Both the position numbers and the translations under genes were made by a program. This document shows positions 37,610 to 50,554 of a stretch of 64,000 nucleotides of DNA, in pieces (the stretch's first letter is position 1; each line of letters starts with the position of its first letter). Source of the stretch: Pirellulales bacterium. Its GTDB lineage: Bacteria > Planctomycetota > Planctomycetia > Pirellulales > PALSA-1355. The stretch spans positions 640,001 through 704,000 of the forward strand of contig CAVTBU010000006.1 of the NCBI GenBank assembly GCA_963733035.1, in the 5' to 3' direction. The notes under the pieces are model-generated. The model was not told where the DNA came from and did not search any database. It saw only the letters and a list, made by a program, of their open reading frames with translations.

Positions 37610-39384
37610 ATGGATAGCGCCCTTTGGTTTCGGTCTGCGGCCATAGCGACCGTGGTCGCCGTTCTGGCTTGGCTGCCTACGGAGAAATGCGAGGCCGGCG
37701 CCGGTGCGGTGGCCGATGCAAGAGGCGACGCCAGCAACCGTCGCCCCTACAACATCATCTTTGTCATTTGTGACCAGGAGGCATATCATCTCAGCGCATC
37801 GGGCGACTATCGCCTACCAGCGCGCAGGGCACTCATGCGCCGGGGCACGACGTTTTGCAATCACTACATTGCCTCGGCCATGTGCACCGCATCGCGGGCG
37901 GCATTCTTGACCGGCCAGCCGCCACAAGTCACGGGCGTCTTCGACCAGATGGAATACGGCTATGTGCCGAACCTAAGCCCGAGCTTTCCCAATGTGGGCT
38001 CGGTGCTTAAAGGTCTTGGCTACAGAACGGCCTACTTCGGCAAGTTTGAGATGAACGCCCAGATTCTGGCGGACAAGCACTCGGTCAACTATAGCGACGC
38101 CCTGAAGCCCTACGGGTTTGACGAGTTTAGCGCCGACGGTGACGTACGGAGCGGACCATATGATGGTTACACGAAGGACTTCTTCACGGCGGCAGAGGGC
38201 GTTCGCTGGCTGCGCACACAAGAGGCGTGGCAGCGTGAGGAGGGGGGGCCACCATTCTTCATGGTGCTCAGCTTTCTCAATCCGCACGACATTATGTACG
38301 CGGATGCCAATTTGGCGAATCAACCAGCCGTGCAAAAAGGCGCAGTGCCGCGCGTGCTTACTCCTCCGCCGGCCAATTCCATTTATCGGGAGCACTGGAG
38401 CTTCGCGCTCCCTCAGAGTCTCGAGCAATCGCTAGGCGCGCCGGAATGCCGGCGGCACTTCGTGAGTATCACGAGGGCTGGTCCAGTGCCCTCGGCTTGA
38501 TACCTGCAAATCGACCTGACATGTGGACCGTTTTCTACGATTACTATCTCAACTGCATTCGCGACAACGACCGTGCGATACAGCTGCTCGTCGATGCCAT
38601 GGATGAGATGCAATTGTGGCAGAATACGGTCGTCGTGTTCAGCGCTGATCATGGTGAGATGGCTGGTGCGCACGGAGGACTCAAAGGCAAAGGCCCGTTT
38701 TGCTACGAGGCCAATTCGCACGTTCCCTTGGTGATCGTACATCCGCAAGGTAAGCCCGGAAGCAAATGCTCCGCTGTGACCAGTCATCTCGACTTGCTCC
38801 CGACGTTCTATGGGCTTACCGGTTTGCCTACTAGCCAATGTCCGGCGGAAGTTGCTGCTCTGCCGGGTCACGATTTTTCGATCTTGCTTGATGACCCGGA
38901 GAATGCCAGCCCGCACGCCATCCGTCGGGCAGCACTCTTCAACTACGTGGGGCTCGCCACGGTCGACGGCCACTACCTGTTTCGCGCTCTGTCTCAATCG
39001 TTCACGAAACGCCCCGTGCCGCCTTTGGTGGAAATCGACCTCGGCAAACGCGGCTTTGTTTCGTTTGCGTTCGATGGCCGCTACAAGTTCGGCCGCTACT
39101 ACGCCCCCAGCGAGTTCAACACGCCACGGACCATCGACGAGATATTCGCACACAATGACGTGCAACTGTTCGATCTGAAAAACGATCCGGACGAGATGCA
39201 CAATCTCGCACTCGAGCCGGAGCGAAACAAGGAGGTCATCCTGCGGATGAACGCGGTGCTCAACGAGCTTATCGCCGCGGAAGTCGGCGAAAATGACGGC
39301 AGTTTTCTACCTGAAAGCGTGCGACCCACGCGGCCCGAGCTGACATTCGATCGTCCCCAGAGCCGCCGTGACACCTTCGAGTGA
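37610..39384 (+). CDS. Exported sulfatase (apparent frameshift near 38444)
   Basis: YNIIFVICDQE, CTASR and NPHDIM in frame 1; MPAALREY...SADHGEM...GKGP in frame 2; junction GCG CCG GA ATG lacks one G. Confidence 0.87.
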
Positions 39385-39565
39385 ATCCGCCCGACGAAGA
39401 ATGGTTGGCGATCTCTTTTGCTGGTCACGACACTATTCACCCCGCCAACGCCGGTCGCCCGAGTCGTTTCCTTGAACATCCTCACCTGGTGGGGCTGATC
39501 CGCTAGAATGACGGGCCGTAGCTCGACGGAAAACCTTCAGACTCGTGCGACGCAAGGAAGGCGAA

Positions 39566-42328
39566 GTGACCAACTGGCACAAGCAAACAGTAGCTCAATC
39601 GCTTGAGCAGTTGAATTCCGACGAGAAACGGGGCTTGAGCGAGAATCAGGTTGAATCTCTGCGTGCTCGGTATGGTCCAAACGAACTCATCGAGACAGGT
39701 GGCCGTGGGGCATGGCGCATTCTTTGGGAGCAAGCCAGCGGTGCCCTGGTCTTGCTGCTGTTCGTGGCAGCCGGGGTCTCGTTCTACCTCGAGGAGTACA
39801 CCGATGCGGGGGTGATTCTCGCCATCGTATTGCTGAACGCAACCCTGGGCTTCGTTCAAGACTATCGCGCCGAAGAGGCGCTGGCCGCCTTGAAGAAGTT
39901 TGCTGTTCCGTTGGTGCGCATGCGCAGAGACAACATCGTGCGTGAGATTTCCGCTCGCGAACTGGTGCCCGGCGATATCGTTTTGCTGGAGTTGGGTAAC
40001 AACGTGCCGGCCGACTGCCGGTTGTTGGAAAGCGTTAATCTTAAGACGCAGGAGGCGGCACTTACCGGCGAGTCCGAATCGGTCGACAAGCAAGCCGAGC
40101 CAGTTGCAGGCGACGATTTACCGCTCGGCGACCGCACCAACATGGCCTACATGGGCACCGTGGTGACATACGGTCACGGTCACGGCGTCGTCACGGCCAC
40201 CGGTATGGACACAGAGTTGGGGCAGATAGCCCGCTCGATGCAGACCATCGAAGCCGAGCCGACGCCGTTGCAGAGGCGGCTCGGTCAATTAGGGCGAACA
40301 CTGGCCCTCGTGGCAATTGCCATCGTGGCGATCGTATTTGTCATGGGGTTGCTGCGGGGAGAAGAACCCCGTTTCATGCTACTAACTGCTCTGAGTATGG
40401 CGGTGGCCATTGTGCCCGAGGGACTGCCCGCCGTGGCGACCGTGACCTTGGCCATCGGCGCCCGCCGGATGTTCAGGCGAAACGCACTCATCCGCAAACT
40501 GCCCGCCGTGGAGACATTGGGTTCGGTAACCGTGATTTGCTCGGACAAGACGGGGACGCTCACCGAGAATCGAATGACGGTGACGGTGCTCGACGTGGCT
40601 GGGCAGCGACTCGATCTGTTGGAGTCGCTCGAGAGAGGAGAGCTTGCCGCCCAGGCCGACGGTCGGAATGGCGTCGACGCTCCCAAGCCGCAAGCGGCCG
40701 AGAATTCATCCTTGAGCTTGCTGCTCACGGCCGCAGCCCTGTGCAACGATGCAGAACTTGAGTTCGATTCGGAGCGGCAGGAATTTCATTCACTAGGCGA
40801 CCCGACCGAAGCGGCATTGGTCGTCGCGGCTGCGCGGTTCGGACTGCCAAAGAATCGTCTGCTGGCCATCTGCCCGCGCGTGGCGGAAGTTCCGTTCGAC
40901 TCTGACCGCAAGCGGATGACGACGGTGCACAGCCTGGATGAATCCGCCGACCGAGTTTCCGACGAACCCCTGCACTCGGTTGTCACGATGATTCGCGACT
41001 TGGAAGGTGCGTACGTGGCCTTTACGAAGGGCGCGGTCGACTGCATCCTCGACGCGTGTGACCGGGTGTGGGATGGCGGCGACGTCAAACCGCTTGACGA
41101 TAACTGGCGGCAACGCATTGCAAGTGCCAACGAAGCGCTAGCCGCTAGCGGAATGCGCGTGCTGGGTGCCGCGTTTCGGGCCCTCGCGGAATCTCCAACC
41201 GACAACGTCGAATCGGTTGAGCAGGACCTGGTGTTCATTGGCATCCTGGGCCTGCTCGACCCGCCCCGGCCCGAGGTGGCCGAGGCCGTTGCACGCTGCC
41301 GCTCGGCCGGCATTCGCCCGATGATGATCACCGGAGATCACCCGCTGACCGCTGGCCATATTGCCGCGCAGCTGCGGATCGACGACGGCGGGCGTGTTGT
41401 CACGGGACAGCAGTTGGAACAAATCTCACCGGAACAGCTCAATGAGATTGTCGAACAGACGGCGGTTTATGCCCGCGTGGCCCCAAAGCACAAGTTGCGC
41501 ATCGTGCGAGCCCTGCAAGGCAATGGCCAGGTGGTTGCGATGACCGGCGACGGAGTTAACGATGCCCCGGCGCTGCGGCAGGCGCACATCGGCATTGCGA
41601 TGGGCATTACCGGCACCGACGTTTCCAAGGAAGCCTCGCAGATGGTGCTGCTCGACGACAACTTCGCCACGATCGTCAATGCGGTTGAGGAAGGCCGTAT
41701 CGTCTACGACAACATCCGCAAGTTCGTAAAGTACACCATGACCAGCAATGCTGGCGAAGTTTGGGTGATGGTGCTCGGACCGCTGGTGGGCATGCCGCTC
41801 CCGCTCTTGCCGCTGCAGATTCTATGGATCAATCTGGTGACCGACGGCTTGCCCGGTTTGGCCCTGGCCGTGGAACAGGCCGAGAGCGATACAATGCGGC
41901 GGCCACCCTATCCGCCCAACGAACACGTATTTGGTCGCGGCATGATGCGCGATATCGCTTGGATCGGCCTGTTGATGGGCCTGGTGTCGCTGGCGATGGG
42001 CTATTGGTATTGGGCTTTTGAGTCCGCAACCAACGTGCAATGGCGAACGATCGTGTTCACCGTGCTGACGCTGTCTCAAATGGGCAACGTGATGGCAGTG
42101 CGTTCCAACCGCGATTCGTTGTTCCGGATCGGCGTCTTCTCGAACCGGCCACTCCTCGGCGCGGTGCTCTTGACGTTTGGATTGCAATTAGCCGTGGTCT
42201 ATTGGCCCCCGTTGCAAAACGTGTTTCAGACGGCGCCCCTGTCCGCAATGGACCTGCTGTTGTGCATTGCCCTGAGTAGCGTCGTTTTCTGGGCCGTCGA
42301 GGCGCAAAAGCTGCTCAAGCGCCGCTAG
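39566..42328 (+). CDS. Cation-translocating P-type ATPase (P2A, Ca2+-type)
   Basis: TGES, PEGLP, DKTGTLT, KGA, TGDH and TGDGVND motifs; [11 protein letters not shown] start at 39566 with AAGGAAGG SD. Confidence 0.93.
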
Positions 42329-42468: not shown

Positions 42469-42780
42469 CTAACCGCCCGCGAGCGCTCCGATCACCAAGT
42501 AGGGTTCCGCTCCCGATGCGACCGCATCAGGCAGCGGAGAATCGGGCGATTCATTCGATAGATCCTCCTCGCAAGCGAAGAACCTAAGGAATGCCCGCCG
42601 CTGTTGCGTGACATGATCGCGAATGGTGCCGCGCAGCATTGGATACCGCGCTTCAAGCGCATCGAGAACCGTTCGCTGCGTCACGGGACCGTCGAGGGAG
42701 ATCTCCACCTCTGGCCCAACCTTCGCCAGCATCCGTAGATGCAACGGCAGCATCACGCGTATTGCGGCTGCACCGGTCAT
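42469..42780 (-). CDS. MoaD/ThiS-family ubiquitin-like (beta-grasp) protein
   Basis: [13 protein letters not shown]...[12 protein letters not shown]...IGALAGG* with a free C-terminal Gly-Gly; ATG overlaps the upstream TGA. Confidence 0.88.
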
Positions 42781-43895
42781 GACAACGCTTGCACCTCGAC
42801 GCTTAGTACGGGTGGCAGGTCGCGGACGATCGGAGCCCAGTGATCGCCGGAATCGGCAGAACAGTACACTTGTCCGCCGGTCGTGCCGAAATAAATGCCA
42901 CAAGGATCCAGCGAGTCGACGGCCATCGAGTTTCGCAGTACGTTCACGTAACAGTCACTCTGCGGCAACCCGTCAGTGAGCGCCTCCCACTCGTTGCCTC
43001 CGCTACGGCTGCGATAGACGCGCAGCTTACCATCGGGCGGATAGTGCTCTGAGTCACTCTTGATAGGCACGACGTAAATGGTTTCCGGCTCGTGCGCGTG
43101 GACGTCGATCGGAAAACCGAAATCGCTAGGCAAGTTGCCGCTCACTTCGTGCCACTCGTCTCCAGCATTGTCGCTCCGCATCACGTCCCAGTGTTTCTGC
43201 ATGAATAGCACGTCTGGCCGCGCGGGATGCATGGCGATGCGATGCACGCAATGGCCAACCGCCGCGTCCGGGTCGGGCAACACGTAAGGCGACTTCAGGC
43301 CTTGGTTGATCGGCTGCCACGAACTGCCGCCGTCGTCGGAGCGAAAAGCGCCGGCTGCCGAAATCGCAATGTAAAGTCGCTGTGGATTGCTTGGGTCAAT
43401 CAAAATTGTATGCAGGCACATGCCCCCAGCCCCCGGCTGCCAGAACTTACCCGAGCCATGCTCGCGCAGGCCCGGAAGTTCGTGCCACGAGCGACCGCCG
43501 TCGGTGGTGCGAAACAGCGCCGCGTCCTCCACACCGGCGTAGACGGCATCCGGGTCGGTTCGCGAAGGCTCCAAATGCCAAACGCGCTTGAACTCCCAGG
43601 GGTGTGGCGTGCCATCGTACCACAAATGCGTGCCGGGCGTGCCCTCGTACGCGAACTTGTTGTCGACCGGCTCCCAGGTCTGCCCTCCGTCGTCCGATCG
43701 CTGGATCAATTGGCCAAACCAACCACTCGACTGCGAGGCGTAGAGCCGATCGGGATTGGCGGGGGAGCCCTTGACGTGATAGATCTCCCAGCCGCCAAAG
43801 TGTGGCCCGACGACTTCCCAAGCCTGGCGTTTGCCGTCGGACGTCAGGATGAATGCGCCTTCGCGCGTGCCAACAAGTACGCGTACACCGCTCAT
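42777..43895 (-). CDS. Cytoplasmic BNR/Asp-box beta-propeller protein (sialidase-like fold)
   Basis: Repeated SxDGGxxW boxes ([48 protein letters not shown]); no signal peptide. Confidence 0.88.
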
Positions 43896-43940
43896 TCCGA
43901 GCTCCTCGCAATTGGACGTGATGCAAAGTATTCGATCATG

Positions 43941-44345
43941 CTACGCACGCAGAGGCAACAAAGCTCTCAGCCGGGGATCACGCAGAAACAAACCCAACCA
44001 AACCAATACGCCGAAGAAAACTGGAGCGGCGACCGAAATAGCCGGGTCTTCGACGCGAACGTGCGTTGCCGTTGCGCCGCCCAAATAGCCGGTCAGCAGA
44101 ACCGCCCCCAGCACCGCGGTTTGGGGGAAGACATAAACCAACGTGCAAACAAGTTCGACAACCCCGATCGCAATCGTGAGTTTTGGATCATAGCCCAATT
44201 TCGTGAAGGTCTCGACGACGGCGTCTGGCTTTGCCAGTTTCATTGCCCCACTTGTCAGCAGCATCAGGACGGCCAGCGTGCTCATGATCCGTCCAGCCCA
44301 CACCATTTTTGCGGATACCGCTTTCGTAGGTGCGTCGGTGTGCAT
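43941..44345 (-). CDS. DoxX family membrane protein
   Basis: SGAMKL...IGVVELVC...LGAVLLTGYLGGATATH; four TM segments. Confidence 0.9.
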   Translation of the reverse strand: MHTDAPTKAVSAKMVWAGRIMSTLAVLMLLTSGAMKLAKPDAVVETFTKLGYDPKLTIAIGVVELVCTLVYVFPQTAVLGAVLLTGYLGGATATHVRVEDPAISVAAPVFFGVLVWLGLFLRDPRLRALLPLRA

Positions 44346-44359
44346 GCGAAGGCCTTTCG

Positions 44360-44908
44360 CTATTCACGGGTTGGAGCTTCAAGTACCGATTTCATATTCG
44401 CCAACCCCTCTTCAAATTGGCCGCCGACCATCTTATCCATGTTCAAGGCCAAATGAATAGCTTTGCTCATGAAATTGTTGGTGCCATACATCGTCCACGT
44501 GACGTCGGTCCGATCTCCATTTGGCCTGAAGCGGAACTCCGCGGTGTTCGTGGCGGCAAAGGGTTTGAGGAATTCGAGCTTGATTTTGACCAGCTCATGT
44601 GGGCGGCTTTCCACGATCGTCATCTTGCCCTCGCCGACCTGGTTGCTACCGATCCATTGGAAGATGGCGCCTTCGCCCGAGTCCGGACCGTTGTAGGTAT
44701 TTTGGGCCTGAGGGTCGAGCTTTGCCCATGGTGACCACTGCTGCCAATTGTGAAGGTTGTTTACCTGGGCGAAGACCGCCTCTGCAGGTCCGGGCATCGT
44801 GGCGGATCGCGTCACGCGAAATTCCGATGGCTGCATGGCCACAATACCAGCGAACACCACGACCACTACGAACAAGATTGCCAATACAATGAAAAGGACT
44901 GTAACCAT
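44360..44908 (-). CDS. SRPBCC (polyketide cyclase/START-like) protein with an N-terminal membrane anchor
   Basis: FRVTRS...WQQWSPW...FEEGLANMK; alternative start at 44956. Confidence 0.85.
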   Translation of the reverse strand: MVTVLFIVLAILFVVVVVFAGIVAMQPSEFRVTRSATMPGPAEAVFAQVNNLHNWQQWSPWAKLDPQAQNTYNGPDSGEGAIFQWIGSNQVGEGKMTIVESRPHELVKIKLEFLKPFAATNTAEFRFRPNGDRTDVTWTMYGTNNFMSKAIHLALNMDKMVGGQFEEGLANMKSVLEAPTRE

Positions 44909-45028
44909 CGGATGTCTCTTGCGCCTTGCACCGTGCTGGGAGGGCTCACTGTCCATGGTGTGTCTCGCTGACTAGAAAGCAAAGCTCGATCGGTAATTTA
45001 CCTACTGATTTTATCGACCGCTTCCGAT

Positions 45029-45499
45029 TTACGACCCATTGAGGTCGCTTACTCGACGCTCCGCGACCTTTCGAACAGTCGATAGCTCGTGCGCCCAGCC
45101 ACCCGGCATGCCGTCGCGGTGTTCGGCAATTATCTGACCGATCGCGCGATGCTGGAGCGTCAACCGTGTTTTGTCGCCCTCGGGCGATAGACGATATTGT
45201 ACGTGGTTGACCGCCGGATACGACATGCACAGTGGTCCGCAGATCTCCAGCAGTAACGGCGGTTTGAACACCTGTACGTGTCCCCAGAAATGGCCCGCAT
45301 TGTCGCCCAAATCGCGATACCAGCGGCCTCCGGGCCAGGGTTCAATTCTCATTGGCAAGGGGGAATCCGGTCCGGTGGCGTTGTGAGGGCCGAGTTGTTC
45401 CAGGATTGCCTCGAAGACAATGTCTGGCGGGGCGGCGATCAGCTCCTCTTTGCAAATCTCCAGCGTGTGTACCGTTGTTTCGATGGTGCCCGCGGCCAT
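45029..45499 (-). CDS. SRPBCC (AHSA1-like) protein
   Basis: IAAPPDIVFEA, EPWPGGRW, TRLTLQH and GW motifs. Confidence 0.85.
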   Translation of the reverse strand: MAAGTIETTVHTLEICKEELIAAPPDIVFEAILEQLGPHNATGPDSPLPMRIEPWPGGRWYRDLGDNAGHFWGHVQVFKPPLLLEICGPLCMSYPAVNHVQYRLSPEGDKTRLTLQHRAIGQIIAEHRDGMPGGWAHELSTVRKVAERRVSDLNGS

Positions 45500-45501
45500 G
45501 T

Positions 45502-45876
45502 TTATTGCTCCACGTCGTTGGAGGTTGCGTTGTTGTGCGACGACCGTTCGCGAGCCGTCCGTTCGGCTCGCTGTTTGATGCCTTCTAGTTGATGGCTCCA
45601 GTAGCGCTCGTACGTCTTGACCCATTGATGCACGGGCTTGAGCCGCTCGACTTCCAATCGGTAGAGCCGTCGCTGCCCTTGCTTGCTGACGGATACCAGT
45701 CCCACTTTTCGCAGCACACCGAGATGCTTGGAAACTGCTGGCTGCGGCATCCGCAAGTGGTCGACGAGCTCACCGACGGCATGCTGGCTTCCTCCCCGCA
45801 ACAGGTCGATGATCTGTCGTCGCCGGGGTTCGGCAATGGCCTGGAAAACATCGGCGCTTGCGGCGGTTCGTGGCAT
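45502..45876 (-). CDS. ArsR/SmtB family transcriptional regulator
   Basis: DVFQAIAEPRRRQII, QPAVSKHLGVL and GQRRLYRL motifs. Confidence 0.92.
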   Translation of the reverse strand: MPRTAASADVFQAIAEPRRRQIIDLLRGGSQHAVGELVDHLRMPQPAVSKHLGVLRKVGLVSVSKQGQRRLYRLEVERLKPVHQWVKTYERYWSHQLEGIKQRAERTARERSSHNNATSNDVEQ

Positions 45877-45882
45877 GTCGCC

Positions 45883-45910
45883 AGTATATGCCAATAATGG
45901 AATATATCAA
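45883..45910 (-). promoter_or_regulatory. Leaderless sigma70 promoter with an overlapping palindromic operator
   Basis: TTGATA-N16-TATACT-N6-ATG; the imperfect inverted repeat TATATGCCA-ATAA-TGGAATATA spans the spacer. Confidence 0.7.
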
Positions 45911-46244: not shown

Positions 46245-47195
46245 ATGCGCGTGATCAGCGTGACTCCCGCAGGCCGTCGTCGTTATTTGGCGGCGCTCGT
46301 GCCGCATTTGTTGGCGCAGCGCCACGTCATCGACGAGCACCATTGGTGGCTCAACACTAACGATCCAGATGACGCCCGCTACGTAGAGCAGATCACCGCC
46401 GAGCATCCGGACTTTTTCAGAATTTGCCAAAAGCCGGTACGGTCCGATTTAAACATTGGGCAGAACATCTGGCGGTTCTTTGCGGAGTACTGCGAGCCCG
46501 ACACATTGTACTTACGGTTCGACGACGACATCGTCTATATGGCTCCGGACGCCGTTGAAAACCTGGTGCGTTTTCGCCTGGCACATCGCGAACCAGTCGT
46601 TGTGCTCGGCAACGTCGTCAACAACGGAGTCTGTTCGCATTTCCTGCAACAAGCTGGCCTCATACCACGAACCTGGGGTGAAGTAGAGAATTTCTGTCTG
46701 GACGGAAACGGTTGGGCGTGCGGCGAGTTTGCCTGCAAGCTTCATGGCCTGTTTCTCGACGAACTGCGTTGCGGAAACTGGGAACGCTGGAAACTTACAG
46801 ACCTGCCCGTCGACGGACGGCGTCGGTTCTCGGTCAATGTCGTGTCGTGGCTGGGAGAGGATCTTTGCCGCGTGCCGGAGGTTCATGGCGGGGTCGTCGA
46901 CGAGGAGTTGTTCTTGACGGTCGAGTTGCCGCGCCGCCTTGGCCGCTCGAATGCGGCTTGCGGCGACGCATTGTTTGCGCATTTCGCCTTCTTTACGCAG
47001 CGACCTTACCTTGAGTGGACTTGGCCACAGTTGATTGGCCACTACCAGGAAATCGCTCAGCGCCGCCAAACGGCGCCGTCATGGAACGAGCCGGCCCTCA
47101 CGCTGCTGCGGCACACGGCCTGGCGTTACGGCAAGCACGTGCGCAAGCTACGCCACAGCATTGAAAAGCGCAAGCAACGCCGCATGGCGGCGTAG
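46245..47195 (+). CDS. Hypothetical protein, probable GT-A glycosyltransferase-like fold
   Basis: VTPAGRRRYL N-terminus and YLRFDDDIVY (DxD-like) motif. Confidence 0.6.
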   Translation: MRVISVTPAGRRRYLAALVPHLLAQRHVIDEHHWWLNTNDPDDARYVEQITAEHPDFFRICQKPVRSDLNIGQNIWRFFAEYCEPDTLYLRFDDDIVYMAPDAVENLVRFRLAHREPVVVLGNVVNNGVCSHFLQQAGLIPRTWGEVENFCLDGNGWACGEFACKLHGLFLDELRCGNWERWKLTDLPVDGRRRFSVNVVSWLGEDLCRVPEVHGGVVDEELFLTVELPRRLGRSNAACGDALFAHFAFFTQRPYLEWTWPQLIGHYQEIAQRRQTAPSWNEPALTLLRHTAWRYGKHVRKLRHSIEKRKQRRMAA

Positions 47196-47197
47196 GC

Positions 47198-48745
47198 CTA
47201 GCGACTCGCTTTTGCGTTTTCCACTGGCCGAGGCGATGTGAACGGTGGTTTGGCCTCCGGCACCTTTGCCAACTCGGCCCGCAACTCTGCTACCAATGCT
47301 GGGCGTGATGAAGCGAGGTTCTGAGTCTCTTCCGGATCGCACTGATAGTCGTAGAGTTCCAGGTCGGAAGTATCCGCGGGCGCGCCCGGGTTCTTCCACT
47401 CCACCAGGCGATAGCGCGCCGTGCGCACGGCGCGACCTACCAGCGTCCCCTTGCCGCGTGGATTTCTGGGATATGCATGAAAGACGGCGGTTTTGGATGT
47501 CGTCTCGGGGTTGCACAACACGGACACGAGACTTTGGCCGTCGAGCGCTTGCATGGACGGCGTCGGCAGCCCGGCCAGTTCACAAAGAGTTGGATAAATG
47601 TCGACCGACTCGGCCAACGACGTGGTTCTGGTTCCGGGCTTGGCAAAGCCCGGAGCCACGATGAGCAGCGGAATGTGAGCGGCCTGTTCGTAGTTGGTGT
47701 GCTTGCACCAAATACCATGGTCGCCCAGGTGCCAGCCGTGATCGCCCCACAATACGATCACCGTGTTGTCCGCCAATTTGAGCCGATCAAGCTCGTCAAC
47801 CACGCGGCCTAGTTGGGCGTCCATGTAGCTTACGGCGGCATAGTAGCCGTGGATCAGGGTCCGCTGCAGCTCGTCGGGAACAGGACCCTGCTTCGGAATT
47901 CCGGCATATTGCCGCAGCTCACCGCCAAACTGCGGCGCGTAGGAGGGCGCGCCGTCTGGAGGCGTACGACGGGAGGCCAGGTTGAAGTCTTCCCGACGAT
48001 ATTGATCCCAGTATTTCGCCGGTGCACAAAAGGGGAGGTGCGGTTTGACAAAACCGATCGCCATGAAGAAGGGCTGCCCGGGCCGCGTGGCTGCGGCTTG
48101 CAGGCGGCGGATCGCTTCATCGGCCAGGATGCCGTCTGGATATGCGTTGTCTGGCACTTCGGCACGTTCGTAAGCGGCCCCTCTCGGCAGACCTCGCGCC
48201 GATCGATTGGCGAACAAGGCCTCCTCGCGAGTCAATTCACCGCCGGCTCGGCTTTCCGGCAGTACATAGGCCACAACGTTCGCCTTCCAGTGCGGCACCG
48301 ACCAGGATTCCGGATCTTCGTGATTGCCATGGCCCACGTGAAAGATTTTACCCAAGCCTTCGCTTTGGTAGCCATGTTGCTTGAACCACTGCGGCAGTGC
48401 AATCGCGTCTGGAGTGGCCTGGCGAAAGTTCGTGCCGAGATCGTAAATGCCGGTTGTCTGTGGTCGCAATCCCGTGAGCAGTGCATTGCGCGACGGTGCG
48501 CAAACAGCTTGATTACAATAGGTCCGCTCGAAGAGCAAACCACGCGAGGCCAGCCGGTTGATGTTCGGGGAGCGTGCCAATGCATCTCCGTAGCAGCCGA
48601 GCGCTGGCTTGAGGTCATCGACACAGATCAAGAGGATGTTTGGATGCGGCTTTTCAACGGCGACGGCGAACGCGACGGATATTCCAAGGCCGTTTACTAG
48701 CGCAAAGCCAAGTAGGAAAACCCAACGGCGTCTATGGAGCATCAT
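47198..48745 (-). CDS. Exported sulfatase (iduronate-2-sulfatase-like)
   Basis: PNILLICVDDL, CAPSR, GKIFH, KPHLPF and WGDHGWHLGDHGIWCKH motifs. Confidence 0.92.
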   Translation of the reverse strand: MMLHRRRWVFLLGFALVNGLGISVAFAVAVEKPHPNILLICVDDLKPALGCYGDALARSPNINRLASRGLLFERTYCNQAVCAPSRNALLTGLRPQTTGIYDLGTNFRQATPDAIALPQWFKQHGYQSEGLGKIFHVGHGNHEDPESWSVPHWKANVVAYVLPESRAGGELTREEALFANRSARGLPRGAAYERAEVPDNAYPDGILADEAIRRLQAAATRPGQPFFMAIGFVKPHLPFCAPAKYWDQYRREDFNLASRRTPPDGAPSYAPQFGGELRQYAGIPKQGPVPDELQRTLIHGYYAAVSYMDAQLGRVVDELDRLKLADNTVIVLWGDHGWHLGDHGIWCKHTNYEQAAHIPLLIVAPGFAKPGTRTTSLAESVDIYPTLCELAGLPTPSMQALDGQSLVSVLCNPETTSKTAVFHAYPRNPRGKGTLVGRAVRTARYRLVEWKNPGAPADTSDLELYDYQCDPEETQNLASSRPALVAELRAELAKVPEAKPPFTSPRPVENAKASR

Positions 48746-48790
48746 TTCACCTTCCAGTCCGGCTAGCGGCGAGACGCGTGCCATTGTAGC

Positions 48791-49549
48791 TCACTGCACT
48801 ATCAAGGGCCGACCAGGTGTTTCGATCTGCTGCATATATTTTGGATTGGAATGCGCGCCACTGAGCGTGCGAACGAGGGGGCACGTGCTCTTCGCGTCCT
48901 TTCCGCGCCGATAGGACTCCAGCAGTTCCTTCGATTTCTGCGCGAGCATTCGACGAACTTCGCGGCGTTTGCCTTTGGTGCGAGGAATAGTCATCGCGTC
49001 GTAGGCTGTGGTCTGGTGTCTCAGCCAGGCAATGACCGCCGCCTCGGCTCGCTTTTCGACCGGGATTCGCTTGGTGCGGGCCACCGTGCCGCTGCCAACG
49101 GGCGTCGCGTGCAACGTAACGGCGCGGGCCAGCCGTTGCGCCAACTTCTGGTATCGGTTGTGAAATGCGAGATACGCCATCACGGCATGGAAAAAGTCTT
49201 CGACGTATTCGGCCTGAGCCCGACGGCGGCGCTCGGCATCGGCCTGTCGCCGTTTGGCGTAGCTCGCCGTGGAACGTTCCGCGAACAGTTGCTTGCGAAT
49301 TCGCTCAATTAGTTCCGCGGGCGCCCACAACCCGTGCGAGTACACCCGGCCTCCCTTGTTCTCTTGCACCCGCCAATGTGGGCCGGCAAGTTTGACCCGT
49401 CGGGTCAATGCGGCATCACCCGGCGGCAGGTGAACCCAGTCGGCCGGCACGCTCAGAACGGCACCGCGCCGATCGCGCACCGTTCGAGCCCGGGGCCCGG
49501 GCGAAAAACTCTCCACGGCTGGTTGTGATTTCAACGCCGTACTCCCCAT
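48791..49549 (-). CDS. DUF2293-like domain protein
   Basis: LPPGDAALTRRVK, HATPVGSGTVART and AVIAWLRHQTTAYD; family assigned from recall, start uncertain. Confidence 0.7.
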   Translation of the reverse strand: MGSTALKSQPAVESFSPGPRARTVRDRRGAVLSVPADWVHLPPGDAALTRRVKLAGPHWRVQENKGGRVYSHGLWAPAELIERIRKQLFAERSTASYAKRRQADAERRRRAQAEYVEDFFHAVMAYLAFHNRYQKLAQRLARAVTLHATPVGSGTVARTKRIPVEKRAEAAVIAWLRHQTTAYDAMTIPRTKGKRREVRRMLAQKSKELLESYRRGKDAKSTCPLVRTLSGAHSNPKYMQQIETPGRPLIVQ

Positions 49550-49650
49550 CAGTGCGCGTTGCTGCCGATCATCAAGTTGGCAATCATACGAGGCGCCCTG
49601 GCTCAAATTCAAGCAATTCCGTGGCAACGGGTGACCATCACGCGGCACCT

Positions 49651-50295
49651 TCAAGAAGCCGGTTTGCTTGGTGCCGTCGGCTCAAAAGCCGCGGCGGCCA
49701 GCCGACGGGCGTGATTGCGTACGTCGGTGGGCCAGGTTTCGGTGAGCTCGTGGAATTTTTCCGCGTTGGGAGCAAACAGGGCCCGCGTCACCTCCTCAAA
49801 CCCCGGCAGGTTTCCCGCCAGTGCGTGCAGAAACCGGTAGGCAGCCTCTTGACCGCGACGAATTGCGTCAGCCGTTTGCCGCGAGCGACGAGCGTCGTCC
49901 ACCAGCTTGCGCAAGGCAACCGAGGCTCCGCCGGGCTGCGCGCTGAGCCATTCCCAATGCCGGGGGAGCAGTGTGACCTCGCGCGCCACCACGCCCAGCT
50001 TTGGCCGGCCACGGCCCCGCGGGGTGGAGTCCGTAGCACCTTTAGCGTGCCGCCCCGCCGAGTCGACGCTTGAGCGCGTCTCCGGCAGCTCCAGTCGACG
50101 TAGGACGTCTCCCAATGGGCCGCGAAAGTCGACCTCCAAAAGTTCGCTGGTGGTTTCGTCAAAAACGAGCACTGGCGCCCGCTCTCCGCGTTCAAGCACG
50201 GCCTTGGTCTTGGCGACCACGTTCTTGATTTCGCCCGATGCGATCCGCTCGAACCCTTCAAAAGCAATACAGTGGCTAGATGCCGTTGGGTGCAT
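49651..50295 (-). CDS. DUF2239 family protein (RHH-like DNA-binding motif)
   Basis: RGRGRPKLGVVAREVTLLPRHWEWL...GGASVALRKLV...AGNLPGFEE. Confidence 0.85.
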   Translation of the reverse strand: MHPTASSHCIAFEGFERIASGEIKNVVAKTKAVLERGERAPVLVFDETTSELLEVDFRGPLGDVLRRLELPETRSSVDSAGRHAKGATDSTPRGRGRPKLGVVAREVTLLPRHWEWLSAQPGGASVALRKLVDDARRSRQTADAIRRGQEAAYRFLHALAGNLPGFEEVTRALFAPNAEKFHELTETWPTDVRNHARRLAAAAFEPTAPSKPAS

Positions 50296-50333
50296 GGCGT
50301 GCGATTCCTCGGTTGAATGGGAGTTTCCTGGAG

Positions 50334-50375
50334 TTTTACCCGGATATAAATTATCGTCAATAGTCCCGGGTAAAA
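50334..50375. promoter_or_regulatory. Inverted-repeat operator upstream of DUF2239
   Basis: Perfect 10-bp inverted repeat TTTTACCCGG-N22-CCGGGTAAAA flanking a minus-strand TTGACG. Confidence 0.65.
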
Positions 50376-50554
50376 TTAAGAAACTTCGCCGGTTGATTGC
50401 CAACCTCGGTGTCGCCGTGCGGATCGGCTCCCATCGAACACGGCCAGCGAGATCACTCGAATCGCATCCATCGAGGCCCAATTGATGCAGCTGCGCGGAT
50501 TCGTCGGCAAGCGAGCCTTAGATTCGGAGATGGATTCACCCCCCCCCCGCTACG

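Follow-up and report, generated by a model that had tools for sequence, protein, structure and literature searches.

We report that a seven-bladed Asp-box beta-propeller, annotated in relatives as a sialidase, and a ubiquitin-like beta-grasp protein (Ubl) that ends in Gly-Gly form a two-gene module conserved across more than ten phyla. The pair was found in a 64,000-nucleotide stretch of Pirellulales DNA (the window), where it closes a set of six minus-strand open reading frames (arsR, two SRPBCC genes, doxX, propeller and Ubl), all in one orientation, that a reading of the window's ORFs places at 42469-45910. The original prediction had described six co-oriented genes, an ATGA overlap between the last two and a Ubl with a Gly-Gly end, and each of these holds at the positions below.

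45883..45910, minus strand: sigma-70-like promoter match 5' of arsR, TTGATA-16-TATACT, 10/12 matches (a consensus match only)
45502..45894, minus strand: ArsR/SmtB-family regulator (PF01022, 51.6 bits, cut-off 22; NF033788, 83.4 bits, cut-off 55)
45029..45499, minus strand: SRPBCC (AHSA1-like) protein (PF08327, 22.0 bits, marginally below the 22.1 cut-off)
44360..44956, minus strand: SRPBCC (Polyketide_cyc2) protein with an N-terminal hydrophobic helix (PF10604, 53 bits)
43941..44345, minus strand: DoxX_2 membrane protein (PF13564, 79.7 bits)
42777..43895, minus strand: propeller, 372 aa, seven-bladed Asp-box, YP_299179.1/3B7F family (by profile, model and Foldseek)
43410..43418, minus strand: codons C160-L161-H162, start of the inner strand of blade 4 (strand E160-166)
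43242..43253, minus strand: codons H215-C216-V217-H218, start of the inner strand of blade 5 (strand E217-222)
43191..43199, minus strand: codons Q233-K234-H235, end of the second strand of blade 5 (H235 and Q233 invariant)
42777..42780, minus strand: ATGA shared by the propeller stop and the Ubl start
42469..42780, minus strand: MoaD/ThiS/SAMP1-like beta-grasp protein (Ubl), 103 aa, C-terminus ...GALAGG (by fold and relatives)

Among 80 close-family loci, with propellers 76-84% identical, the Ubl gene lies directly downstream of the propeller gene in 78, and the identical 4-nt overlap recurs in 70 of 77 related loci. The groups that carry the pair include Acidobacteriota, Planctomycetota, Verrucomicrobiota, Chloroflexota and Gemmatimonadota, as well as Actinomycetota, Armatimonadota, Hydrogenedentota, Methylomirabilota, Alphaproteobacteria and others; it is also present in C. 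metallidurans CH34 and R. pseudosolanacearum, and in Mitsuaria its members are annotated 'MoaD/ThiS family protein' and 'exo-alpha-sialidase'. The pairing extends to diverged propeller subfamilies (35-55% identity), to which the Cupriavidus, Ralstonia and Mitsuaria loci also belong; here 40 of 42 Planctomycetota loci retain it: a neighbouring same-strand ORF ending in [S/A]GG lies up- or downstream in 38 of the 42, and in the two remaining paired loci the Ubl domain carries a C-terminal extension. No neighbour other than the Ubl is conserved across these 42 loci. The association far exceeds chance, the conserved unit consists of Ubl and propeller only, and this gene-neighbourhood survey bears out the suggestion that the pair is probably widespread. 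An adjoining Ubl is missing from the propellers of L075, L090 and L108 and from the plasmid-borne propellers of Streptomyces (L139), Fuscovulum (L140) and Rhodobacter (L144). Literature searches found no published function for the pair.

The remaining four genes of the window are local context and lie outside the conserved system. Relatives of arsR occur in four of 80 related loci, of doxX in eight and of SRPBCC-2 in three, while SRPBCC-1 has none, and the ArsR-led six-gene set is not conserved. The arsR stop is separated by a 2-nt gap from the ATG, at 45499, of the AHSA1-like SRPBCC gene, and the regulator scores above the HTH_5 and NF033788 cut-offs for ArsR/SmtB metalloregulators; as to its effector there are only matches to BigR, CmtR and SdpR, all below threshold. 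Elsewhere the recurrent neighbours are of a stress type, with YCII proteins at 18 loci and an ECF sigma factor with DUF6596 at 15, joined by VOC/glyoxalase, HxlR, DoxX, SRPBCC and ArsR proteins, and ahpCF adjoins the Mitsuaria pair. Placement of the module behind an ArsR-type regulator with SRPBCC and DoxX proteins would be one among many interchangeable stress or detoxification contexts.

An AF2 model of the Ubl (pLDDT 90.1) has the beta-grasp fold and finds SAMP1 (3po0; TM 0.75/0.85) as its best Foldseek match, then CysO, MoaD and Urm1, with top matches at TM 0.65-0.75 and the Ahp1-Urm1 complex 7q5n included. No Pfam or NCBIfam model matches the window Ubl at E<=0.01, and it stays short of the PF02597 (ThiS) gathering score; at E<=1 that profile picks up 39 of 76 relatives, the best of them with 2e-4, but not the window copy, and Ubl partners of other propeller subfamilies pass it, with 32.5 and 36.8 bits against 22.5. 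The predicted MoaD/ThiS assignment of the window Ubl rests on its modelled fold and on its relatives. All 76 Ubls compared have G102 and G103, and the A-x-[A/S]-G-G tail is conserved in all subfamilies. In the close family, 66 of 77 Ubls stop exactly at Gly-Gly and 11 run past it, three of them into other domains, so a free C-terminus is not always encoded. The genome has a single ThiF-type E1 gene, on contig C5, the window being on contig C6. Its only MoaE gene likewise lies on C5, a canonical MoaD-MoaE pair existing outside the window, as does its only Prok-JAB match, a weak one (24.6 bits, below cut-off), in agreement with the earlier observation that the window holds no E1, JAB or Moco genes.

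The propeller matches 3b7f in PDB profile searches (E 2e-79, residues 4-366), and its AF2 model (pLDDT 89.8) superimposes on that structure (Foldseek E 9e-35, TM 0.87/0.88, 36% identity), which places it by full-length sequence and fold similarity in the YP_299179.1/3B7F family. In Pfam it matches Sortilin-Vps10 (54.4 bits) and BNR (31.8 bits). The fold differs from that of JAMM/MPN+ Ubl hydrolases (MPN fold, E..HxH..S..D motif). As had been noted, there is no signal peptide: the chain opens with a beta-strand and lacks a hydrophobic leader, from which the protein is predicted to be cytoplasmic. 3B7F (Reut_B4987, YP_299179.1, of Ralstonia eutropha JMP134), a structural-genomics entry titled 'putative glycosyl hydrolase with BNR repeats', is the closest solved structure and belongs to the same seven-bladed Asp-box family (profile E 2e-79 and 1e-118; TM 0.87). 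It retains H146, H162, H218, Q233, H235 and R321, and in Cupriavidus and Ralstonia a MoaD-like gene stands immediately upstream of its relatives, but at 36% identity it carries Asp216 and Lys160 where the window protein has two Cys. The passages on 3B7F in PMC2716378 give its tunnel as 9 x 11 A and call the protein functionally uncharacterised; the same source, in its part on Asp-box propellers, names the top face as their functional face.

Three motifs had been singled out in the propeller, GMCLHTI, GHCVHRI and QKH, and they are present at residues 158-164, 214-220 and 233-235. Across 71 propellers W152, H162, S179, H218, Q233, H235 and R321 are invariant. At position 216, where GHCVHRI has its Cys, 40 of them carry Cys and 26 Asp, and the other five genes read an in-frame TGA; a 35-row alignment (A3) has Asn at 216 in two rows and Arg in one, and Gln for H218 in two. 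The expectation that both CxH motifs are conserved therefore stands for C216 and H218, which with Q233 and H235 belong to the family core, but the first motif keeps only H162: C160, H215 and K234 vary, the last being N or H elsewhere. In a DSSP strand map the conserved residues fall at inner-strand starts or second-strand ends, which is the top face. The three invariant His and position 216, together with S179, Q233, W152 and R321, may form one site, whose predicted location is the mouth of the central tunnel on that face, at blades 4, 5 and 7. We take this to be a putative mononuclear metal site, which in the Cys and Sec clades would act as a metal-assisted thiol/selenol redox site. With Asp at 216 in 26 of 71 propellers that keep the Ubl, the proposed Cys/His enzyme cannot cover the whole family; a metal ligand fits better, and the exchange of Cys for Asp fits such a role. 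C160 co-occurs with Cys or Sec at 216, which could mean a dithiol or selenol-thiol redox pair absent from the Asp clades.

The in-frame TGA falls exactly at codon 216 in five genomes from four families, all five with a tRNA-Sec(TCA), and is followed 18-42 nt downstream by a hairpin. The minimum free energy of this hairpin is -11.9 to -17.6 in four Sec forms, while 94 Cys forms average -7.2 (sd 3.1) and two of these reach -14 or lower; in three of the four scored Sec forms it is stabler than in 92 of the 94 Cys forms. Among the best 120 database matches to a Sec form, nine are gene calls of 216-217 aa that end one residue before the TGA. A TGA at the Cys-homologous codon, a tRNA-Sec and a SECIS-like hairpin are thus found together in relatives, and codon 216 probably encodes selenocysteine there, which marks the position as functionally critical. 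The window gene is a Cys form (TGC), and no tRNA-Sec was found in its genome, where the best Rfam match is a tRNA-Ser. The arrangement resembles that of fdhF-type Sec/Cys families, which likewise have TGA at a Cys position, a tRNA-Sec and a nearby downstream hairpin; fdhF is the paradigm for bacterial selenoproteins with an in-ORF SECIS. Selenocysteine serves more commonly in redox catalysis than as a ligand. Literature searches found no papers linking selenoproteins with BNR repeats, MoaD or beta-propellers.

Our preferred reading, which we put forward tentatively, is that the Ubl is a dedicated MoaD/ThiS-type carrier and the propeller its partner enzyme, whose His3-Cys/Sec/Asp metal/redox centre would receive the Gly-Gly tail. 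The genome's single ThiF/MoeB-type E1, encoded elsewhere, would activate the C-terminal Gly of the carrier to an acyl-adenylate and then a thiocarboxylate; the flexible Ala/Ser-Gly-Gly tail would enter the propeller funnel, where R321 would grip the terminal (thio)carboxylate, and the centre would carry out sulfur chemistry, for example transfer of S to a small-molecule acceptor or its release. The scheme would be analogous to MoaD-MoaE, ThiS-ThiG and CysO-CysM, with a new acceptor fold. In these pairs and in CysO-BexX, a Gly-Gly beta-grasp gene stands beside that of its partner enzyme, often translationally coupled, and the E1 gene, as here, stands apart from the pair; the Ubl profile also aligns end to end with chain 4n6e_B, from a BexX/CysO complex entry. 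The present module differs in that the partner is a beta-propeller and biosynthetic pathway genes are not linked. To our knowledge, no sulfur-carrier acceptor enzyme has a beta-propeller fold.

Several other explanations were weighed. The propeller could be a hydrolase specific for the C-terminus of the Ubl, equivalent in function to JAMM/MPN+ proteins like Mec+ or QbsD, and would then trim residues past Gly-Gly or cleave adducts or conjugates through a His/Asp(Cys)-bound metal and S179. QbsE ends in GG-CF, and QbsD removes the CF. The 11 extended Ubls suit this idea, with ends that include GGAI, GGQI, GGCF, GGCY, GGER, GGQWV, GGENKFR and GGEFLAER, an 18-aa tail and fusions to AAA+ and YjbR, as do a Ubl-GG-DinB_2 protein (L096), a 20-aa tail (L137) and a Ubl-propeller fusion with an internal VSGG (P0207); the propellers offer His, His, His, Asp and Ser at invariant or alternating positions, and no gene in this genome reaches the Prok-JAB cut-off. 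We nonetheless consider it unlikely, given that 66 of 77 Ubls already end at Gly-Gly and need no trimming while the propeller is always there, that the extended and fused forms stem from MAG contigs, where stop codons may have been lost, and that no linked gene supplies conjugation machinery, be it E2, E3 or a nearby E1. Selenocysteine argues in the same direction, as we know of no hydrolase that uses it. A decidedly unlikely alternative is a SAMP/Urm1-like protein-modifier or persulfidation system acting under oxidative or electrophile stress, in which the Ubl thiocarboxylate would react with Cys/Sec216 or with other proteins and the propeller, instead of an enzyme for small molecules, would be the dedicated target, a receptor or an E2/E3-like factor. 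In Urm1, conjugation goes together with the persulfidation of cysteines, and SAMP1 (of Haloferax) and Urm1, both dual sulfur carriers and protein modifiers that work without E2 or E3, match the Ubl best in structure (7q5n among the entries) and share its Gly-Gly end; the company that C160 keeps with Cys/Sec216 and the stress-type neighbours, ahpCF beside the Mitsuaria pair included, also agree with it. Identity to SAMP1 and Urm1 is however only 17-19%, and the obligate propeller partner has no counterpart there. Asp216 propellers keep their Ubl, so the partnership can do without a reactive thiol; such a system leaves the invariant His triad without a function, and the neighbours vary, with none conserved.

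Still harder to uphold is a Ubl that serves as a structural or regulatory subunit or chaperone without C-terminal chemistry, beside a propeller that is a ligand-binding or sensor protein. P0139 joins a Ser/Thr kinase to a propeller, a fusion that a ligand-binding or sensor protein would explain no less well than an enzyme would, and P0207 and the C-terminally fused Ubls suggest that the free end is dispensable. Against this, a Gly-Gly kept in 76 of 76 Ubls at the end of a conserved tail is not easily understood if the C-terminus has no role, and selenocysteine and the invariant His triad point to catalysis. That the annotation is right, the propeller being a glycoside hydrolase or sialidase and the Ubl an unrelated neighbour, we regard as highly improbable. 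Database names ('exo-alpha-sialidase', 'sialidase family protein', 'glycosyl hydrolase, BNR repeat') speak for it, and the next structural neighbours after 3B7F are GH74 xyloglucanases (TM 0.57-0.65), yet those are two-propeller proteins of about 730-790 aa and the matches cover only one propeller. The window protein falls below the cut-offs of the Sialidase (GH33)/BNR_2 model PF13088 (16.7 vs 31.4) and the F510_1955 glycosylhydrolase model NF045728 (78.3 vs 175), so the label, which the original prediction had doubted, rests only on the Asp-box repeats. A predicted cytoplasmic location and the description of 3B7F itself as uncharacterised in that part of PMC2716378 also count against it, and a glycosidase would account for neither the Ubl linkage (78/80 and 40/42 loci) nor the Sec codon.

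Peptide binding is found in related Asp-box propellers, a likeness that speaks for the subunit reading. Sortilin/Vps10 and Ycf48 hold peptide ligands in or near the tunnel or on the top face, as indicated by passages of PMC2716378, which place the sortilin ligand in the tunnel, and by PDB titles that name Ycf48-D1 peptide complexes. Sortilin, with ten blades, and Ycf48, a PSII assembly factor, differ from the present family in having neither the His3-Cys/Asp constellation nor a Ubl partner, and their sequence similarity to the propeller is confined to the Asp-box repeats.

Only the last two genes of the ArsR-led operon, encoding a beta-propeller with Asp-boxes and a ubiquitin-like protein of MoaD/ThiS type (Ubl), form a conserved unit. 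The operon comprises six co-oriented genes:

45502-45894, minus strand: ArsR/SmtB regulator (NF033788, 83.4 bits against a cut-off of 55)
45029-45499, minus strand: AHSA1-like SRPBCC protein (SRPBCC-1), with its ATG 2 nt past the arsR stop
44360-44956, minus strand: Polyketide_cyc2-type SRPBCC protein (SRPBCC-2), with a hydrophobic helix at the N-terminus
43941-44345, minus strand: DoxX_2 protein
42777-43895, minus strand: propeller, 372 aa
42469-42780, minus strand: Ubl, 103 aa, C-terminus ending GALAGG

A sigma-70-like match (10/12) lies directly upstream of arsR, no terminator-like site was found between the six genes on the minus strand, and the propeller and Ubl genes have an ATGA in common at 42777-42780. 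The gene order, this overlap, the Gly-Gly end of the Ubl and three propeller motifs, GMCLHTI (residues 158-164), GHCVHRI (214-220) and QKH (233-235), are as the original prediction had described them. The absence of E1, JAB and Moco genes from the window, also stated there, holds for the families searched (ThiF, MoaE and Prok-JAB): the genome's sole ThiF match, its sole MoaE, beside a canonical MoaD, and a Prok-JAB match below threshold all lie on contig C5, and the window is on contig C6. The flanks hold a P-type cation-transporting ATPase of 927 aa convergent with the operon's end (39545-42328, plus strand), an ORF resembling, by eye only, the C-terminal part of a sulfatase (38446-39384, plus strand), a 316-aa ORF divergent from arsR without a Pfam match at E<=0.001 (46245-47195, plus strand), a sulfatase ORF (47198-48784, minus strand; PF00884, 165 bits) and adjacent DUF2293 and DUF2239 genes with a 4-nt overlap (48791-50481, minus strand), a pair of uncharacterised conserved proteins.

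Scanning one genome per species yielded 595 stretches with propeller relatives, of which we kept the best 80, at 76-84% identity to the window propeller. The record titles of these loci name Acidobacteriota, Planctomycetota, Verrucomicrobiota, Chloroflexota, Gemmatimonadota, Actinomycetota, Armatimonadota, Hydrogenedentota, Methylomirabilota, Alphaproteobacteria and others. When the best 80 of 595 were searched by tblastn with the six window proteins, the Ubl lay directly downstream of the propeller in 78; at one of the two exceptions the sequence stops 86 nt past the propeller (L066), and the other has no Ubl (L075). The 4-nt overlap recurs in 70 of the 77 loci with an assignable Ubl start, a count that leaves out these two and L058, where our script found no start and the Ubl was later detected by HMM. 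Relatives of arsR (4/80), SRPBCC-2 (3/80), doxX (8/80) and SRPBCC-1 (0/80) are rare, and the six-gene operon is rejected as a conserved system. The recurring neighbours of the pair, namely YCII proteins in 18 of the 80 loci, ECF sigma factors with DUF6596 in 15, and further VOC/3-dmu-9_3-mt, HxlR, DoxX, SRPBCC, GyrI-like, DUF3224 and SDR proteins, are small stress or ligand-binding proteins that make up an interchangeable set, and the ArsR operon of the window is one such setting.

The pairing is older than this close family, which is one 50%-identity cluster in an exhaustive HMMER search of the propeller that returned 2,035 representatives at E<=1e-30 and 39,908 at E<=1e-3; next come many full-length relatives at 36-55% identity. 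At E<=1e-40, 59 of 151 sampled Planctomycetota genomes had a family member, with 80 matches in total. The family also occurs in 66 of 201 genomes from a second phylum, that of the genome behind the close-family locus L005, titled Acidobacteriota (the 201 include the unpublished G204 and G307). We examined the neighbourhoods at 42 of the 80 Planctomycetota places. In 38 of them a small ORF on the same strand, ending in [S/A]GG, adjoins the propeller gene, upstream in some clades and downstream in others; in two more the Ubl domain is extended at its C-terminus (L096, by fusion to DinB_2; L137, by 20 further residues). The survey thus agrees with the expectation that the pair is widespread, which it found in 78/80 close-family and 40/42 diverged loci. 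The remaining two, L090 and L108, have a propeller without a Ubl, and no Ubl or UGSC-like small ORF is recognisable beside it. No other neighbour is common to the 42, and no conserved third gene (E1, JAB, rhodanese or desulfurase) was found in the 80 close-family or 42 diverged loci.

A collection of plasmids and chromids has the pair in Mitsuaria, under the NCBI names 'MoaD/ThiS family protein' and 'exo-alpha-sialidase', and in Cupriavidus metallidurans CH34 and Ralstonia pseudosolanacearum, so the branch of the nearest solved structure, 3B7F, is paired too. Three propellers of this collection stand alone: one in Streptomyces with no notable neighbour, one with Cys at position 216 on a Fuscovulum plasmid, with an SCO-family protein and a multicopper oxidase as neighbours (L140), and another with Cys-216 on a Rhodobacter plasmid, divergent from the ergothioneine synthesis genes egtB-egtD (L144).

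Two loci carry two tandem propeller genes behind one upstream Ubl gene (L120:2501-5226 and L124:2501-5323).

The propeller was modelled with AF2 at high confidence (pLDDT 89.8, pTM 0.90). Its first strand begins at residue 3 and there is no leader, in keeping with the predicted lack of a signal peptide. The structure nearest to it is 3B7F (Reut_B4987 of Ralstonia eutropha JMP134; profile E 2e-79, Foldseek TM 0.87, 36% identity), which is described, in the text available to us, as a seven-bladed Asp-box propeller of uncharacterised function that forms a 'YP_299179.1 family' of its own, is the sole known Asp-box propeller without Velcro closure and has a tunnel of 9 x 11 A; Asp-box propellers are said there to have their functional residues on the top face, opposite the Asp-boxes (Quistgaard and Thirup, PMC2716378). 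Doubt cast earlier on the 'sialidase' label proved justified. All glycosidase-type models are sub-threshold (PF13088, 16.7 against 31.4; NF045728, 78.3 against 175), so the names 'sialidase', 'glycosyl hydrolase' and 'PSII assembly factor-like' derive from the repeats alone, and the annotated glycosidase activity is very unlikely. Two database proteins join the propeller to other domains: P0139 (704 aa) has a Ser/Thr protein kinase fused N-terminally to a propeller of the YP_299179.1/3B7F family, and P0207 (454 aa) has a Ubl ending in VSGG joined to its propeller by about nine residues.

We aligned 71 propellers, consisting of the window protein, 44 genes of the 42 diverged loci, those of 6 loci on plasmids and those of every fourth locus among the 77 in the close family. 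W152, H162, S179, H218, Q233, H235 and R321 are invariant in all 71. At position 216, 40 have Cys, 26 have Asp and 5 have an in-frame TGA. The predicted conservation of the CxH motifs is therefore borne out for their histidines, H162 and H218, and only in part for their cysteines, as C160 is not universal and position 216 is Cys in 40/71. H215, K234 and H146 are not universal either. C160 occurs in most clades with Cys or Sec at 216 and is absent from all Asp-216 clades. A separate 35-row alignment has exceptions, with Asn at position 216 in two rows, Arg in one, and H218 replaced by Gln in two; 3B7F itself has K160, H162, H215, D216, H218, Q233, H235 and R321. On a DSSP map of the AF2 model, C160/H162 and C216/H218 start the inner strand of blade 4 and of blade 5, S179 and Q233/H235 end the second strands of the same blades, and R321 precedes the inner strand of blade 7. 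Judged from the topology of a propeller, all the residues located on this map would point to the top entrance of the tunnel.

A FastTree phylogeny of the 71 propellers, approximate and with many unsupported forks, separates six groups: Asp-216 forms with the Ubl upstream, including Burkholderiales; Asp-216 forms with the Ubl downstream; Cys-216 forms with the Ubl upstream; Sec/Cys-216 forms with the Ubl downstream, where one Cys form (L094) is nested among Sec forms; a small Cys-216 clade with the Ubl downstream; and the window's close family.

The relatives with TGA at codon 216 are probably a selenoprotein family. A single in-frame TGA interrupts 5 of the 80 propeller matches in the 151-genome Planctomycetota sample (L091, L092, L097, L136 and L137, in genomes G083, G023, G089, G108 and G024), and in all five it is codon 216 (VGT*VHKLLVHP, against a 12-residue counterpart), aligned to 43248-43250 of the window. 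The halves on either side are both conserved (e.g., 231 and 211 bits). The five genomes represent four families, and each encodes a tRNA-Sec (Rfam RF01852, 65.7-75.2 bits; gathering score 47), called by ARAGORN as tRNA-SeC(tca). A G+C-rich hairpin of 8-9 bp lies 18-42 nt past the TGA, and four Sec forms have a minimum free energy of -11.9 to -17.6 over nucleotides 15-48, against a mean of -7.2 (sd 3.1, n=94) in Cys forms, 2/94 of which reach -14 or below; this comparison leaves out 25 pattern-unmatched loci, among them the fifth Sec form, L097, which folds alike. Among the 120 best hits of one Sec-form query, nine gene calls of 216-217 aa end one residue before codon 216, one of them being the query's own fragment. 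No stop interrupts the propeller matches in the 201 genomes of the second phylum. In the window gene codon 216 is TGC, and the best RF01852 match in its genome is a tRNA-Ser.

The window Ubl has no match at E<=0.01 in Pfam or NCBIfam. Pfam ThiS is matched by 39 of 76 aligned family members at E<=1 (best E 2e-4), and the partners in diverged subfamilies score above the ThiS threshold. The family profile and the CysO chain of 4n6e align end to end (E 0.15), Gly-Gly on Gly-Gly, and the AF2 model (pLDDT 90.1) is closest in fold to SAMP1 (3po0, TM 0.75/0.85), followed by CysO, MoaD and Urm1. G102 and G103 are invariant in 76/76 Ubls, and an A-x-[A/S]-G-G tail is common to all partners. Sixty-six of 77 close-family Ubls end exactly after Gly-Gly. 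The other 11 run on, by 2-8 residues (GGAI, GGQI, GGCF, GGCY, GGER, GGQWV, GGENKFR, GGEFLAER), an 18-residue tail, or a whole AAA+ or YjbR domain. These run-ons come from metagenome bins, and stop codons may have been lost there; genuine ones would mean that the Ubl is processed after Gly-Gly. The fusions past Gly-Gly to an AAA+ ATPase (L037:7110-8864), YjbR (L050:1200-1883) and DinB_2 (L096:3578-4441) are either ubiquitin-fusion-like precursors or lost stops in metagenome bins.

Three invariant histidines and a fourth position that is Cys, Sec or Asp form, as far as sequence can tell, the pattern of metal ligands rather than of a nucleophile. Formate dehydrogenases and [NiFeSe] hydrogenases use selenocysteine as a metal ligand. 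The co-occurrence of C160 with C/U216 would also allow thiol/selenol redox chemistry in the clades concerned. The invariant Arg at the funnel, together with the invariant flexible A-x-[A/S]-G-G tail of an obligate partner, suggests that the site may act on the terminal (thio)carboxylate of the Ubl, much as the tail of MoaD is handled in MoaE. Since the metal-ligand pattern and the invariant Arg and tail favour it, we prefer a model in which the pair is quite possibly a carrier and its predicted acceptor enzyme, with a new acceptor fold. The post-Gly-Gly extensions of some Ubls would instead support a JAMM-like C-terminal hydrolase, which we consider unlikely, and a SAMP/Urm1-like modifier or persulfidation system is improbable as well. 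Fusions of the propeller to a kinase (P0139) and to a Ubl (P0207) speak for a non-catalytic binding partnership, to which we give little weight.

Extending the carrier-and-acceptor model, the propeller might be an unrecognised class of sulfur-carrier-dependent metallo- or seleno-enzyme, in which a His3-Cys/Sec/Asp centre at the tunnel mouth would take the thiocarboxylated Gly-Gly tail of its private carrier and pass sulfur to a stress-linked reaction (e.g., persulfide delivery, thiol-cofactor repair or electrophile/metal detoxification), the module spreading horizontally at ~80% identity among soil bacteria of more than 10 phyla; taken jointly, this whole reading is doubtful. We know of no MoaE-, ThiG-, CysM- or TtuA-type acceptor that carries out such a reaction. 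To our knowledge, the acceptor enzymes of Ubl sulfur carriers are few (MoaE, ThiG, CysM, TtuA, BexX and the PDTC/quinolobactin enzymes), and here a carrier is tied to a fold other than theirs.

We found no function for the propeller family, no MoaD/ThiS linkage and no selenoprotein entry in the available text of PMC2716378, PMC1779556, PMC1949818, an ECF56 preprint and PMC6180224. Beyond PMC2716378, where the family is uncharacterised, no paper treating it was found among the texts available. As far as the text at hand extends, BNR, sialidase, glycosyl hydrolase and propeller are all absent from Iyer et al. 2006 (PMC1779556), 'propeller' occurs in one figure legend only of Burroughs et al. 2007 (PMC1949818), and none of the module's genes is named in either the ECF56 preprint or the S. 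meliloti ECF paper. With 39,908 representatives, the propeller family is very large. Identity within its close branch is ~80% between phyla, an unusual level for a protein without a housekeeping role. Characterising the family would correct a widespread mis-annotation and add a selenoprotein family that we did not find described. The alternation of Cys, Sec and Asp beside three invariant histidines offers a concrete, mutable active-site hypothesis, and the function is directly testable because a solved structure (3B7F) and culturable hosts exist.

Two features are found in the close family and are absent from the diverged subfamilies: a 20-residue insert at propeller residues 81-100 (~43596-43655), and the additional invariant residues H40, H90, H107, H268, H284, C315 and C332.
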